The notes under the pieces were generated by a model. That model saw nothing but the letters and a program-made list of their open reading frames with translations, ran no database searches and was not told the DNA's origin. 64,000 nucleotides of DNA from Candidatus Parcubacteria bacterium. GTDB lineage: Bacteria; Patescibacteriota; Minisyncoccia; Phycocordibacterales; CAIJYI01. The translations under genes were made by a program, and so were the position numbers. Shown here one piece after another: positions 8,562 through 44,060 of this stretch (positions are counted from its first letter, which is position 1; every line of letters begins with the position of its first letter). The stretch spans positions 76,136 through 140,135 of the forward strand of contig JAPLYL010000003.1 in the NCBI GenBank assembly GCA_026395595.1, written 5' to 3'.

Positions 8562-8635
8562 TGCGGGATCATCTAATGGTAGGATGCGACTCTCTGAAAG
8601 TCGTCATCTTGGTTCGAATCCAAGTCCCGCAGCCA
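8562..8635 (+). tRNA. tRNA-Gln with anticodon CUG.
   Basis: The fold was built by hand. The acceptor TGCGGGA pairs with TCCCGCA. The D-arm is ATCT/GGAT with loop AATGGTA. The anticodon stem is CGACT/AGTCG with loop CTCTGAA. The T-arm is CTTGG-TTCGAAT-CCAAG. Discriminator G and CCA are encoded. Confidence 0.85.
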
Positions 8636-14015: not shown

Positions 14016-14120
14016 CGCCCGAGAGCCGTCGATGTGATATTCTTAAATTAAGTAAATCCGCCTTGCAGGGCTTGGTTTCGCACGGTTCCAGTCCGGGGAC
14101 GACAGCCAAATCGTGCTATG
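14016..14120. repeat. Island repeat family C, copy 1. It starts 23 nt after the HD gene stop.
   Basis: Conserved blocks are shared with copies at 16062-16165, 16950-16975 (partial) and 18272-18397. They are CGAGAGCCGTCG, GGCTTGGTTTCGCA, a T-arm-like GGTTCCAGTCC, and CGACAGC. Confidence 0.6.
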
Positions 14121-14189
14121 TTATTTCGCTCGAGATGCATCGATAAATAGAAAATAACATCAAAATGTCGTAGGTGATAAAATTCATAA

Positions 14190-18271: not shown

Positions 18272-18397
18272 CGCCCAAGAGCCGTCGTTGTGGTAATCTG
18301 ATATTAAGCCCTTCGGCTCGTTTTGCTCGCTCAGGATAAACAAATCCGCCTTGCAAGGCTTGGTTTCGCATGGTTCTGGTCCGAGGGCGACAGCGAG
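18272..18397. repeat. Island repeat family C, copy 3. It starts 23 nt after the dinD stop and has a 33-nt insertion relative to copy 1.
   Basis: It is near-identical to copy 1 outside the insertion. Confidence 0.6.
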
Positions 18398-18429
18398 CTT
18401 GAGATAAGTTCGGAGTCCGAGAAGCATTA

Positions 18430-18992
18430 AATCAACCACCCCGCCCCGAAGGGGACGGGGTATGAACAGAACATGGGTGTCAATTCCACAGCGTGGGCTG
18501 CGTGGTAATTCCCATCGTCTTTCCTTGGTTCTCGACATACTGCTTTACGGTATTCCAATTCCCCCGTTCGCTTACAGTGGCAAGGTAATATCCATCGCTC
18601 CAAAATTCACCTCCCCAAAGTTTTTTCCGCAATTCAGGAAATCGCTTGAACAATTCCCGAGCAGTTATACTCTTAAACATTCCTACGATTTGTGAACCCT
18701 TATATTTTGGATGAAAAGAACAGAGTATATGAATATGATTACCATCGGTGCCTACTTTCTCAAACTCAATTTCGTACCTCTCTTCTATTTCCTTAGCGAT
18801 TTCCAGAATTGCTCCTTTTATTTCCTCACTAAGTAATGACTTCCGATACTTTACCGGAAAGACGATATGGTAGTGCGTATCATATACGCAGTGATTGCTT
18901 CGAGTGACACCCATGTTGCTATTATATCAGAAAACCGAGGGTTTTCAGACTTTCCTACACGGTTCCCGCCCCAAGGGGCGGGGTAAGGGCTT
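18430..18992 (-). mobile_element. IS200/IS605-family insertion sequence with minimal tnpA only. It has subterminal hairpins at both ends.
   Basis: tnpA has the HuH motif YDTHYHIVF and a YYLATV catalytic tyrosine region. The hairpins ccccgcccc-gaa-ggggacgggg (18438-18461) and cccgcccc-aa-ggggcggg (18965-18982) flank the gene. Confidence 0.75.
18480..18914 (-). CDS. tnpA: IS200/IS605 family transposase TnpA (Y1 HuH).
   Basis: The 144-aa protein MGVTRSNHCVYDTHYHIVFPVKYRKSLL... is a textbook IS200 TnpA. Confidence 0.85.
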   Translation of the reverse strand: MGVTRSNHCVYDTHYHIVFPVKYRKSLLSEEIKGAILEIAKEIEERYEIEFEKVGTDGNHIHILCSFHPKYKGSQIVGMFKSITARELFKRFPELRKKLWGGEFWSDGYYLATVSERGNWNTVKQYVENQGKTMGITTQPTLWN

Positions 18993-20217: not shown

Positions 20218-20248
20218 CTTGCCTTTGTTTATTTTGTCGTGCTATAAT
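20218..20248 (+). promoter_or_regulatory. Promoter with an extended -10 (gTGcTATAAT) and a TTGCCT -35-like hexamer.
   Basis: The motifs were read directly at 20218-20223 and 20240-20248. It drives the structured RNA candidate downstream. Confidence 0.45.
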
Positions 20249-20254
20249 ATGCGT

Positions 20255-20415
20255 ACAATTGAATAAGTAAGTAGCCTAAACCGATAGTCGTATCGGCATG
20301 GTGAAAAAAAGTCCCGCAAAGACATAAAAAACCCATCATGTGGGGTGTCTTTGCGGGCCATATCGGGAAACCGGTATGAGGGGCTTCGGTCTCTACTCAC
20401 GTGGTGGGCTTTTTG
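20255..20415 (+). ncRNA. Candidate structured small RNA or cis-regulatory leader of about 160 nt. It has a pseudoknot, GAAA and UUCG tetraloop hairpins, and a terminator-like 3' end.
   Basis: Hairpin ccgatagtcgtatcgg is present. A 12-bp helix pairs gtcccgcaaagaca with tgtctttgcggg. A pseudoknot pairs cccaucaugug (inside that loop) with cacguggugggc, including G-U pairs. The GNRA hairpin cgg-gaaa-ccg and the UUCG hairpin gaggggc-uucg-gucuc are present. The RNA ends in a U-run. The G/C-rich reading frame 20340-20461 is not protein-like. Confidence 0.45.
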
Positions 20416-20461
20416 TGTCTCTGAATGCCTACCATAAAAATTATCAATGTATTTTTTATAG

Positions 20462-20756
20462 TATGGAAAATAAACCGATTATTTCACTCAAAGGTGAAGA
20501 TGGACGCGTTGAGCTTTTTGAAGACATGGTAAAGATACGAGAGAGGAGTATTCCCATTAGAGAAATTTTATCTTTAAAAATTAAAAGGCCGGGAAGCACG
20601 CCAGGTTTTTTACATTTTTCCTTAGAGGGTAATATCGCGTCACGCGAATGGACAATCGGGTGTATTCCGGATGAAAACACCCTGTGTTTTTTAGGAAAAG
20701 AAGAATATGATCAAGCGCTTGATTTTTTGAAATACTTTGAGATGCGAAATAAATAA
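20462..20756 (+). CDS. Small hypothetical protein, possibly a bacterial PH-like domain. Its start was re-assigned to the Met of MENKPIIS.
   Basis: The track ORF starts at 20340 inside the structured RNA. The protein-like sequence begins at 20462. No firm homology was found. Confidence 0.4.
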
Positions 20757-42264: not shown

Positions 42265-43158
42265 ATGGCAACACTATATACTTTGCAAAGCACGAATACT
42301 CGTCGGACGTGGTATCTTATGACCACCTTCTTTATTGTGATTATGATGCTCGGTTGGGCGGTAAGCTGGTATTATGGAAGTTCTGCAATCCTGTATGGCT
42401 TTGTTTTCTTTAGCATATTCATGAACATTTTCAGTTATTGGTTTTCCGACAAAATAGTCCTCTCCATGTCCGGGGCGAAAGAAATAACTCGCAACGCGTA
42501 TTTTGACCTCTGGAACATTGTTGAAAATCTTTCTATTACCGCAGGACTTCCCATGCCGAAAGTCTATGTGATTGATGATCCGGCTCCGAACGCTTTTGCG
42601 ACGGGCCGCGATAAAGAACATTCCGCCGTGGCGGTAACAACAGGACTCCTCGGAATGATGGAACGAAGCGAACTGGAGGGGGTGATCGCTCATGAACTTT
42701 CTCACGTGGGGAATAAAGATATTCTTTTGCAAACCGTCGTTGTTATTCTTGTCGGTTTCGTTACTTTGCTGGCTGACTTTTTTATACGTTCCACTTTTTG
42801 GAGCGGGGGACGAGATCGTGATGATAGGGCGGGAGGTATTGCTTTGGTTATCGGTATTGTTTTGTCTATTTTGGCACCTCTTTTTGCTCAACTCATACAG
42901 CTCGCGATTTCCAGAAAAAGAGAATTTCTCGCCGATGCATCGGGGGCTCTTTTGACTCGTTATCCCGAAGGACTCGCCATGGCTCTGGAAAAAATATCCG
43001 GCTATAAAGGGGGAATGAAAACCGCCAACCGAGCGACCGCCCATATGTTCATCGCCAACCCCTTCGGCCCCGCCGGTTTCAAAGGAAAAGCCGCCACTCT
43101 CTTTATGACCCATCCGCCGGTGGAACAGAGGATTAAGGCCCTCCGAGACATGGCGTAA
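42265..43158 (+). CDS. htpX: Zinc metalloprotease HtpX (M48).
   Basis: N-terminal TM helices are followed by HEXXH (IAHELSHV) and a downstream Glu. It sits immediately after lemA, which is a common pairing. Confidence 0.9.
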   Translation: MATLYTLQSTNTRRTWYLMTTFFIVIMMLGWAVSWYYGSSAILYGFVFFSIFMNIFSYWFSDKIVLSMSGAKEITRNAYFDLWNIVENLSITAGLPMPKVYVIDDPAPNAFATGRDKEHSAVAVTTGLLGMMERSELEGVIAHELSHVGNKDILLQTVVVILVGFVTLLADFFIRSTFWSGGRDRDDRAGGIALVIGIVLSILAPLFAQLIQLAISRKREFLADASGALLTRYPEGLAMALEKISGYKGGMKTANRATAHMFIANPFGPAGFKGKAATLFMTHPPVEQRIKALRDMA

Positions 43159-43179
43159 TGTTTTTTCACTTAGCGGACA

Positions 43180-43241
43180 AAGGTCTTCCCTTAAGGAGGA
43201 ATGAAGCGAAGCGGAATGACGGGGAAAGGGGAGACCTTGGG
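43180..43241. repeat. Conserved hairpin element, copy 2. It is the same stem as 6539-6591 with an SD-containing loop, plus a 10-nt insertion cgaagcggaa.
   Basis: It aligns with copy 1 across aaggtcttcccttaaggagga.tgaag ... tgacggggaaaggggagaccttggg. Confidence 0.5.
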
Positions 43242-43329
43242 TAGCGGTACCCCCCCTGATTTCCCGTTCCAACCACACGTGCAAAAAATCTTTTTTTCTG
43301 ATATAGTGGGAACACAATTTAATAGAGCA

Positions 43330-43414
43330 GGAGGGTTCGCATAGTGGCCGAGTGCGCGCGCTTGGAAAGCGCGTAGGGGGCAACCTCTCATGAGTTCGAA
43401 TCTCATACCCTCCG
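43330..43414 (+). tRNA. tRNA-Ser with anticodon GGA (class II, long variable arm).
   Basis: The fold was built by hand. The acceptor GGAGGGT pairs with ACCCTCC. The D-arm is GCA-TAGTGGCCGAG-TGC. The anticodon stem is CGCGC/GCGCG with loop TTGGAAA. The variable arm TAGGGGGCAACCTCTC is long. The T-arm is ATGAG-TTCGAAT-CTCAT. The discriminator is G. Confidence 0.85.
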
Positions 43415-43508
43415 CAGATTTGGAACGCAGTGGAAAAGCTGCGGAGGGTATGAGATGAGAAGTTTATCCTCGGTAGCGAAGCGGACGGGGAAATCTCATA
43501 CCCTCCGC
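43413..43508. repeat. Left boundary of the tRNA-Ser-adjacent island. It holds a 27-nt core cgcagatttggaacgcagtggaaaagc, which recurs at 45925-45951. It also holds an inverted copy (43441-43456) and a direct copy (43493-43508) of the tRNA 3' end atctcataccctccgc.
   Basis: All copies were read directly. The inverted and direct copies can form a 16-bp stem that mimics the tRNA acceptor/T-arm. Confidence 0.6.
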
Positions 43509-43535
43509 CAAGAATATTTTGTATCGGATGACCCA

Positions 43536-44060
43536 AGTGTATTGAAGATGGAACATTCGAACTGGTTTTGGTATAATATTTATATGAAGGGATTTGAACA
43601 AGCACCAATAGAAAACTCGGACTCTACTATAGAGACAATAGATAACTCGCCCGAAAAGAAACATAGTGAAGAAGAAAATATGTGGGATATTCTGCAAGAT
43701 GTTATTGATAACAGGTTCGAGGTGTTCAATGTAGATACTATGGCAGACTACGACGCGGATTTTTCTGGAAGTGAACCTTTGTTTATAAACATTTGGAATA
43801 AAAAGCCGGGGTCCGGGTTAGGATATGTTGTTTTTCACGATTTCTTACGGAGAGTAGGAACAGGAAAGACTTTTTTGTCGACAGATTTTACAGGACCGGG
43901 GGTGAGTCTTTTTAAGAAAGCGTCCAATGCTGGATTAATCAAGCAAGTGTCAGAACCTACTGGTCTACAAAGACTTACCAAATGGGAGGTCACAGGAGAC
44001 CCTGTTGCTAACATGGAAAAGATGAGAGATTCTTGCAATAAGAATTCCTCTACTAAGTAA
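43536..44060 (+). CDS. Hypothetical protein. Its start was re-assigned to MEHSNWFW, because the track ORF from 43455 begins inside the att-like hairpin.
   Basis: It is an intact ORF with no recognised family. Confidence 0.4.
   Translation, partial: SVLKMEHSNWFWYNIYMKGFEQAPIENSDSTIETIDNSPEKKHSEEENMWDILQDVIDNRFEVFNVDTMADYDADFSGSEPLFINIWNKKPGSGLGYVVFHDFLRRVGTGKTFLSTDFTGPGVSLFKKASNAGLIKQVSEPTGLQRLTKWEVTGDPVANMEKMRDSCNKNSSTK

Follow-up and report, generated by a model that had tools for sequence, protein, structure and literature searches.

The window analyzed here is the whole of a 64,000-nucleotide stretch of contig JAPLYL010000003.1 (assembly GCA_026395595.1; positions 76,136 to 140,135 of the forward strand), from a Candidatus Parcubacteria metagenome-assembled genome (MAG). 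On its plus strand, at 20273–20394, lies a structured element that is near-certainly a gene for LOOT RNA (RF03000), here carried by a member of the candidate phyla radiation (CPR; Patescibacteria). The Rfam scan scored this interval at 77.9 bits against a gathering threshold of 46.4 (E = 5.8e-13), and the match takes in model positions 1–121 of 121 and is not truncated. Scanning the whole window at the gathering threshold returned only two matches, LOOT and a tRNA; a permissive scan of the element region (E up to 5) returned noise besides LOOT and no C4 match. An earlier note on this DNA, made from the letters alone, had proposed a structured RNA standing by itself between a promoter and a terminator of its own, matched it to none of tmRNA, SRP RNA, 6S, RNase P, or the glmS, ZTP, fluoride, and preQ1 riboswitch classes, and had called for the Rfam scan that produced this full-length match; the RNA is already curated as LOOT. 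The stand-alone RNA itself is supported by covariation, a conserved promoter position, and an adjoining U-run.

The source of the family is Weinberg et al. (2017, Nucleic Acids Research; PMC5737381), whose main text carries no discussion of LOOT. The Rfam 14 paper presents it as a "metagenomic-based" family (PMC7779021), and the CaCoFold paper gives it about 43 bp in six helices, with 28 "cross-covariations" (PMC7657543). Rfam classes LOOT as "Gene; sRNA" (small RNA), and no assigned function was found for it in any of these papers. The window copy shares with RF03000 the P1–P4 architecture, the P1 loop, the P3 GAAA loop, and the kind of host, and departs from the family in nothing: a long P2, a GAAA-capped P3, and a tetraloop-capped P4 follow one another in the LOOT order in both the Rfam alignment and the centroid fold, and the setting is again that of uncultured, metagenomic CPR, the window coming from a Candidatus Parcubacteria MAG and the homologs from Patescibacteria MAGs. 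The family is already catalogued, and the window copy is an ordinary, typical member of it rather than a new class; any Rfam scan would label it. What is added here to the catalogue entry is modest: a pseudoknot–terminator extension, a conserved 5′ end, a receptor-like P1, and an association with serine recombinases and cargo genes. The additions that lie beyond the 121-nt Rfam model are the conserved 5′ segment ACAAUUGAAUA, the 3′ strand of the pseudoknot, and the U-run.

The homolog set comprises about 40 LOOT copies, drawn from genomes of Patescibacteria and from viral contigs. When species-representative genomes were scanned with an exact 16-base P1 pattern, 119 loci came up, most of them by chance; of 20 Patescibacteria loci put through the Rfam filter, 18 matched LOOT, and about 35 of the 119 loci proved to be LOOT after filtering with Rfam and nhmmer. 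The same pattern identified full-length LOOT in four viral contigs of IMG/VR, and a search of GenBank phages and PLSDB plasmids for LOOT returned no match. The homologs range over Parcubacteria/Paceibacteria, Saccharibacteria, Microgenomates lineages, and Berkelbacteria. An extended covariance model, R1, finds a single copy at each locus, the 64-kb window included. Two alignments were used: A3, a MAFFT alignment fitted to no structure, and A7, a model-based alignment whose model leaves the pseudoknot columns unpaired.

Pseudoknot and terminator

The best-supported long-range feature of the LOOT family is a pseudoknot joining the apical part of P2 to the 3′ tail of the RNA. In the window, its 5′ strand CCCAUCAUGUGGG (20332–20344, plus strand) lies in the P2 apical loop, and its 3′ strand CUCACGUGGUGGG (20396–20408, plus strand) lies outside the Rfam model, which ends at P4 (20394). 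The two strands form a helix of 13 bp, including four G·U pairs, with an own-genome duplex energy of −22.7 kcal/mol. The earlier note had drawn this H-type pseudoknot with 11 bp; the pairing is real and supported by covariation, and only its length required correction. The P2 apical region also holds an A-tract (20326–20331, plus strand), of which 20326–20330 pair with the U-run at 20410–20414; these five A:U pairs can lengthen the helix across one A/C mismatch, and they are present in the minimum free energy fold.

A test that needs no alignment showed pairing between the 14 nt preceding the U-run and one and the same apical stretch of P2 in all 32 homologs, among which at least six unrelated sequence classes are represented. 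A genome's own tail pairs with a mean energy of −21.8 kcal/mol, as compared with −12.8 kcal/mol for the tails of other genomes, and is the best partner in 22 of the 32. In A3, pairing reaches 85.9% over the 18 pairs of the pseudoknot and its A:U extension, 16 of which are changed on both sides; in A7, the first nine pseudoknot pairs are 89–100% paired, with distributions such as CG:14/AU:13/GC:6 and AU:16/GC:16. Pairs between the A-tract and the U-run are 81–100% paired in 36 sequences, including one position at which AU (29) is replaced by GC (6). Two pseudoknot positions are conserved U·G wobbles (27/36 each), which are possible in plus-strand RNA only. The local helix that Rfam draws at the P2 tip is 58% paired across 36 sequences, versus 60% in slid controls. 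The window can form such a helix with 5 bp (20332–20336 with 20340–20344), mutually exclusive with the pseudoknot; as a candidate antiterminator, this local hairpin was rejected for want of covariation support.

The curated Rfam model appears to stop short of the real ends of the RNA and to miss the pseudoknot. This omission may be related to the cross-covariations reported for LOOT (PMC7657543); adding the pseudoknot–terminator would improve the model and could explain them.

A T-run lies directly 3′ of the pseudoknot 3′ strand in all homologs. In the window, this is UUUUUGUGU (20410–20418, plus strand), composed of the U-run proper (20410–20414) followed by GUGU, and it is the predicted 3′ end of the RNA, as the earlier note had it. 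The geometry of an intrinsic terminator is present: the 3′ strand of a stable helix ends at 20408, the U-run begins at 20410, and the A-tract lies upstream. Because the U-run follows directly and no other stable, conserved hairpin occurs there, the pseudoknot helix would itself be the terminator stem, one that encloses the P2 3′ arm, P3, and P4; this anatomy suggests that the helix causes termination. A local hairpin in the tail was considered and rejected as the family terminator, being weak and not conserved: it averages −4.1 kcal/mol, is adequate in 21 of 38 sequences, and is absent from whole sequence classes.

Two further signals lie past the terminator. In the window, the segment GCCUACCAU (20427–20435, plus strand) is complementary to 20401–20409 (−15.0 kcal/mol), and a complement of the pseudoknot 3′ strand occurs 7–23 nt past the U-run in about half of LOOT loci. 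Family-wide, the pairing of tail with downstream sequence averages −12.1 kcal/mol within genomes versus −10.0 kcal/mol for mismatched pairs, a value that none of 5000 permutations reaches. In read-through transcripts, the complement and the pseudoknot 3′ strand would form a hairpin with the U-run in its loop. By inspection, presence of the complement shows no clear correlation with presence of a recombinase. The second signal is a near-exact copy of the locus's own P2 5′ arm, 18–35 nt past the U-run, that ends at the start codon of the next gene or immediately before it, in 6 of 37 loci (L002, L056, L057, L085, L096, and L130); at nine or more matches out of ten, such copies number 5/37 in own-genome comparisons versus 2/1332 in mismatched ones. 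Because the copy ends at the start codon, the P2 3′ arm would be complementary to the translation start region. The copy was rejected as a family rule, as it is missing from most loci and from the window (7/13 match). Both signals hint at an interplay of the RNA with the leader of the next gene, and neither is universal.

Hairpins P1 to P4

The P1 hairpin (20274–20302, plus strand), placed by the Rfam alignment, has covarying hairpin pairs and contains an inner hairpin ccgatagtcgtatcgg (20281–20296, plus strand). Its internal loop, CCUAAAC (20275–20281) facing GCAUGG (20296–20301), is conserved and fits positions written in upper case in the Rfam consensus, which backs the conservation of P1 independently, outside the pattern-selected sample. 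The loop resembles the canonical 11-nt receptor for GAAA tetraloops, for which the consensus is CCUAaG/U_AaGG (PMC2615604): set beside the canonical form CCUAAG/UAUGG, LOOT P1 (CCUAAA/CAUGG) keeps the CC/GG pairs, the U·A, and the AA platform positions, whereas the closing G·U of the canonical receptor is A/C. A receptor-like P1 with a partner hairpin bearing an invariant GAAA loop recalls group I introns and the P4–P6 domain; LOOT, however, has no catalytic core and no RF00028 match, and is not an intron. On these sequence grounds, the GAAA loop of P3 may plausibly dock into the receptor-like loop of P1.

Similar modules occur outside LOOT. The viral contig L194 carries two group I introns (RF00028; L194:739–1100 and L194:8796–9131), and in the first of these P8 is the same CCUAAAC/GCAUGG hairpin as LOOT P1, beside a GAAA-capped P9. 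The LOOT P1 module (GCAGCCUAAACC...GGCAUGGC) also appears in an unrelated structured region of about 200 nt at eight near-identical IMG/VR loci (L156, e.g., L156:2573–2730; L237, L200, L158, L196, L182, L188, and L215); an Rfam scan of two of these eight, L156 and L158, returned no match.

A conserved A-rich linker, GAAAAAAAGU (20303–20312, plus strand; A3 and A7), joins P1 to P2. The long P2 hairpin (20313–20357, plus strand) has arms at 20313–20324 and 20346–20357 that pair over 12 bp, with an additional U·G pair in the window (20325/20345). In every homolog P2 is a perfect stem of 10–13 bp built from unrelated sequences, and all 12 modelled pairs covary; the covariation that the earlier note had proposed to look for was found in about 36 homologs, both in this helix and in the pseudoknot. 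P3 (20359–20378, plus strand) is 97.6% paired in A7, with all eight pairs covarying, and its GAAA loop (20367–20370) is present in 36 of 36 homologs, though it lies outside the search pattern. P4 (20379–20394, plus strand) is capped by UUCG in the window (20385–20388) and by UUCG, GCAA, GAAA, or GUAA across the family. It is dispensable: L002 and L034 lack P4 and keep the tail and the U-run. The hairpins, the 12-bp helix, and the GAAA and UUCG tetraloops of the earlier note were all recovered in place.

Promoter and extent of the transcript

Upstream of the element, a −35-like hexamer TTGCCT (20219–20224, plus strand), weakly conserved in homologs, is separated by an 18-nt spacer from an extended −10 element, TGcTATAAT (20240–20248, plus strand), for 10/12 matches overall. 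This confirms the extended −10 promoter of the earlier note, and the position of the promoter is conserved: at least 20 of 40 homologs have a −10 box, with a score of 5/6 or better, 6–7 nt 5′ of a conserved ACAA. That motif opens the conserved, single-stranded segment ACAAUUGAAUA (20255–20265, plus strand; consensus ACAAnTnAATA in A3), which in the window begins 7 nt after the −10 element. Because of the regular spacing from the −10 box, the predicted 5′ end of the RNA is placed at this segment, and the predicted transcript would run for about 162 nt, from near 20255 to the U-run at 20410–20418.

Local GC content is 0.47, as compared with about 0.30–0.34 in the flanks, a difference already remarked on from the letters. 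The fold of the 166-nt segment has a z-score of −4.76 against dinucleotide shuffles (0/200 shuffles as good), and the whole structure is 86.4% paired in A7 versus 64.2% in shuffles (0/500 attain the observed value). The decisive evidence beyond chance is the curated Rfam match together with covariation in about 36 homologs.

Genomic context

Across the family, the next gene always shares the strand of LOOT (31 of 31 genome loci, 4 of 4 viral loci), against a same-strand background of 71% (P ~6e-6), and begins 10–80 nt past the U-run. The encoded proteins do not cluster and have no common family; the genes include DNA methylases, Mrr nucleases, a Cap15 CBASS effector domain, Sie-like and AbiEii proteins, and endolysin-like domains. 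On the 5′ side, 15 of 98 open reading frames (ORFs) within 4 kb upstream contain a Resolvase domain, and 11–12 of these have the full architecture of large serine recombinases. These recombinases occur at 13 loci, always on the opposite strand, and about 150 nt or 2–3.4 kb from LOOT; among the 22 loci whose upstream sequence reaches 3.5 kb or more, 11 have a serine recombinase. One locus, L153, is a bona fide phage, in which a serine integrase, a ParB-methyltransferase, and a replication initiator precede LOOT, and endolysin-like and Zot-like genes and the large terminase (TerL) follow it. From these associations we infer, as the least certain of our conclusions, that LOOT genes travel in the mobile or accessory DNA of CPR bacteria.

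Directly upstream of LOOT in the viral contig L130, a reverse transcriptase (phrog_1423, E = 4.6e-107) is encoded at L130:5791–7071 on the minus strand. Several contigs break within or beside LOOT (L026:2–144 and L069:1–80, which belong to the same MAG, as well as L033, L039, and L041), pointing to either a repeat at the locus or a flank that varies among strains.

In the window, LOOT lies in an accessory stretch that extends from a tRNA-Gln(CTG) gene (8562–8635) to about 25 kb (25400) and is flanked by housekeeping genes. The co-oriented downstream gene (20463–20756, plus strand; real start ATG at 20463) encodes a 97-residue ORFan whose single match among 5.8 billion proteins is itself (NTZ13_02220), and which has no Pfam, PHROG, or PADLOC match. 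A longer ORF, 20340–20756, crosses the 3′ half of the element, and its part upstream of ATG 20463 is not conserved; the non-protein-like reading frame 20340–20461 singled out by the earlier note is merely this in-frame upstream extension. Other genes of the island encode HepT-like, DUF5677, NERD, and HD proteins, a methyltransferase, a Bro-N/Ant-like (anti-repressor-like) protein, an IS200 TnpA, a ClpP-like protease, a beta-lactamase-fold protein, and a PcfJ-like protein. No integrase was found in the island, PADLOC returned no defense-system match around the window LOOT, and no att-like direct repeat derived from the tRNA-Gln gene and bounding the island was found in the window.

Elsewhere in the island, a GC-rich direct repeat of 74 nt, 80% identical between its copies, occurs at 14049–14122 and 18337–18410. 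The second copy abuts an IS200-type Y1 transposase gene (18480–18914, minus strand), and the repeat probably represents the end of an IS200/IS605 element, present also as a solo or miniature copy at a distance of 4.3 kb. Outside the island, ARAGORN predicts a tRNA-Ser(GGA) gene at 43330–43415 that is not in the Rfam gathering scan; a long minus-strand ORF (42274–43608), probably spurious, overlaps it.

Proposed role and alternative explanations

Judged from sequence and context, LOOT is probably a promoter-proximal, self-terminating RNA module of CPR mobile or accessory elements, with the pseudoknot as its terminator stem. A strong promoter would drive synthesis of a compact, stable RNA of about 160 nt, composed of P1, a hypervariable P2, P3, an optional P4, and the 13-bp pseudoknot. 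Closure of the pseudoknot and ending of the transcript would be one event. The product should be discrete and compact, its 3′ end folded into the structure, and would probably gain rigidity when the GAAA loop of P3 docks into the P1 receptor. An abundant small RNA could be made in this way while transcription into the cargo genes behind it is limited. In many cases it would stand back to back with a large serine recombinase and a replication module, and it would always head a co-oriented, hypervariable cargo gene. LOOT is one of many orphan structured RNAs, and is specific to the CPR/Patescibacteria, whose biology is poorly known; the links to serine recombinases, phages, and hypervariable cargo provide a concrete and testable functional context for it, namely the control of cargo expression by mobile elements in CPR bacteria.

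Several points weigh against this reading. In the window itself, a serine recombinase is absent and no gene is held in common with other LOOT loci; the mobile-element role is extrapolated from about half of the family, and many of the LOOT loci derive from MAGs, with the binning uncertainty that this entails. It would be unusual for the stem of an intrinsic terminator to be a long-range pseudoknot with about 50–65 nt enclosed, and in the window a local 5-bp hairpin (20396–20408) could also act as the terminator stem; the start of the RNA, its end, and the efficiency of termination are all predictions. The receptor-like loop deviates from the 11-nt motif at two normally conserved positions. Selection of homologs by an exact P1 pattern makes the invariance of P1 within the sample circular and biases the sample toward canonical P1. 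Finally, the pseudoknot or the terminator may already have been noted in the original description of LOOT.

A rather unlikely alternative, though one with several observations in its favor, is that LOOT is a conditional cis-regulatory leader, an aptamer or attenuator in which the pseudoknot–terminator would form only in response to a signal (such as a ligand, an element-encoded antiterminator, or phage infection) and so gate transcription from the LOOT promoter into the cargo. In its favor, the downstream gene is co-oriented in 35 of 35 loci and begins 10–80 nt past the U-run. A compact tertiary fold that combines a pseudoknot with a tetraloop and receptor is what riboswitch aptamers typically show, and riboswitches of the pseudoknot type likewise have the pseudoknot 3′ strand next to the U-run; the post-terminator complement in about half of the loci and the P2 5′ arm copy at the start codon in 6 of 37 likewise favor a regulatory connection. 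However, the downstream genes have no common function or family, belonging to diverse Pfam and PHROG families rather than to one pathway, and the gene in the window is an ORFan. No conserved pair of mutually exclusive terminator and antiterminator folds was found: the sole candidate competitor, the local P2-tip hairpin, lacks covariation support, and at about −22 kcal/mol the pseudoknot greatly exceeds every alternative in stability. The family moreover keeps one invariant terminator, whereas the expression platforms of riboswitches usually vary, and there are no conserved unpaired nucleotides that might form a pocket except the A-rich linkers. The suggestion in the earlier note that the element might be a leader for the small gene at about 20462 fares accordingly; a link specific to that gene is not borne out, but the uniform co-orientation suggests a generic coupling.

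It is quite unlikely that LOOT is instead a housekeeping, trans-acting small RNA of the host, the gene for which serves as an integration site or hotspot in the manner of tRNA and tmRNA genes. Its presence as a single copy per locus in many CPR lineages, with its own promoter and terminator, would fit such a gene, as would its Rfam class ("Gene; sRNA"), and a hotspot would be consistent with the variable DNA on both sides, the adjacent integrases, and the breaks in MAG assemblies at LOOT. Against this, the L153 copy lies inside the phage, between replication and lysis/packaging genes, and not at a junction; the recombinase is always 5′ and divergent, whereas targets of the tRNA type carry the element on their 3′ side; no locus has housekeeping synteny on either flank; and the window yielded no att-like direct repeat.

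The proposed role can be extended further, to a reading that we consider decidedly unlikely in its full form. LOOT would then be the RNA part of the control region of a widespread class of serine-recombinase integrative elements and phages of CPR bacteria, its pseudoknot–terminator metering transcription from a strong, lysogeny-type promoter into hypervariable defense or cargo genes. The hypervariable segments (the P2 arms and the pseudoknot strands, with their copies or complements past the terminator) would act as specificity determinants, similar to those of heteroimmunity, that link the fold of each RNA to expression of its own cargo.

We regard as very improbable a role as an immunity antisense RNA of a temperate element, like c4 or CI, in which the hypervariable P2 3′ arm and the pseudoknot 3′ strand pair with matching sequences in the leader of the co-transcribed downstream gene and repress that gene. 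Complementarity of the P2 3′ arm to the start-codon region in 6 of 37 loci, complementarity between the tail and downstream sequence that is significant family-wide, and position at a divergent control region beside integrase and replication genes all point in this direction. The start-codon copy is nevertheless missing from most loci, including the window (7/13); the candidate pairing segments are locked in very stable helices; and Rfam gives no C4 match, with the downstream genes encoding cargo or defense functions rather than antirepressors.

That there is no RNA gene here, and that the region is a GC-rich coding segment, a set of chance hairpins, or a DNA-level recombination site, has virtually no likelihood left: ORF 20340–20756 does run through the 3′ half, and the inverted repeat of tail, T-run, and complement may loosely resemble the att geometry of serine recombinases, but compensatory changes keep the RNA pairing, G·U wobbles work on the plus strand only, the ORF is not conserved upstream of ATG 20463, a curated covariance model matches, and the covariation in effect refutes such readings.

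Comparison with known systems

Among pseudoknot riboswitches (preQ1-I, fluoride, and SAM-II-like), as in LOOT, the 3′ strand of an H-type pseudoknot lies beside a U-run, A-rich strands may line the grooves of the pseudoknot, and a co-oriented gene follows. These riboswitches usually have a separate terminator hairpin, whereas in LOOT the pseudoknot helix is the only conserved stem. LOOT further differs from them in having no consistent downstream function, no supported antiterminator fold, and an invariant terminator.

The c4 RNAs of phages P1 and P7 and the CI RNA of P4 (Rfam C4, RF01695) are small structured immunity RNAs of temperate elements. They share with LOOT a position at the head of an operon that may be regulated and complementarity to downstream sequence, the latter in a subset of LOOT loci. 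There is no similarity between them in sequence or covariance model, however, and LOOT has its own terminator, whereas c4 and CI are processed from a longer transcript; the complementarity in LOOT is not universal and is missing in the window.

Type III toxin–antitoxin loci (ToxIN-like) consist of a promoter, a structured RNA, an intrinsic terminator, and a co-oriented protein gene, with the terminator setting the ratio of RNA to mRNA. The LOOT RNA is a single unit with no tandem repeats, and the proteins encoded downstream of it are mutually unrelated and, in most loci, unlike toxins of the ToxN or AbiE type. Gene order is nevertheless the same in the two systems, and both are tied to mobile elements and defense.

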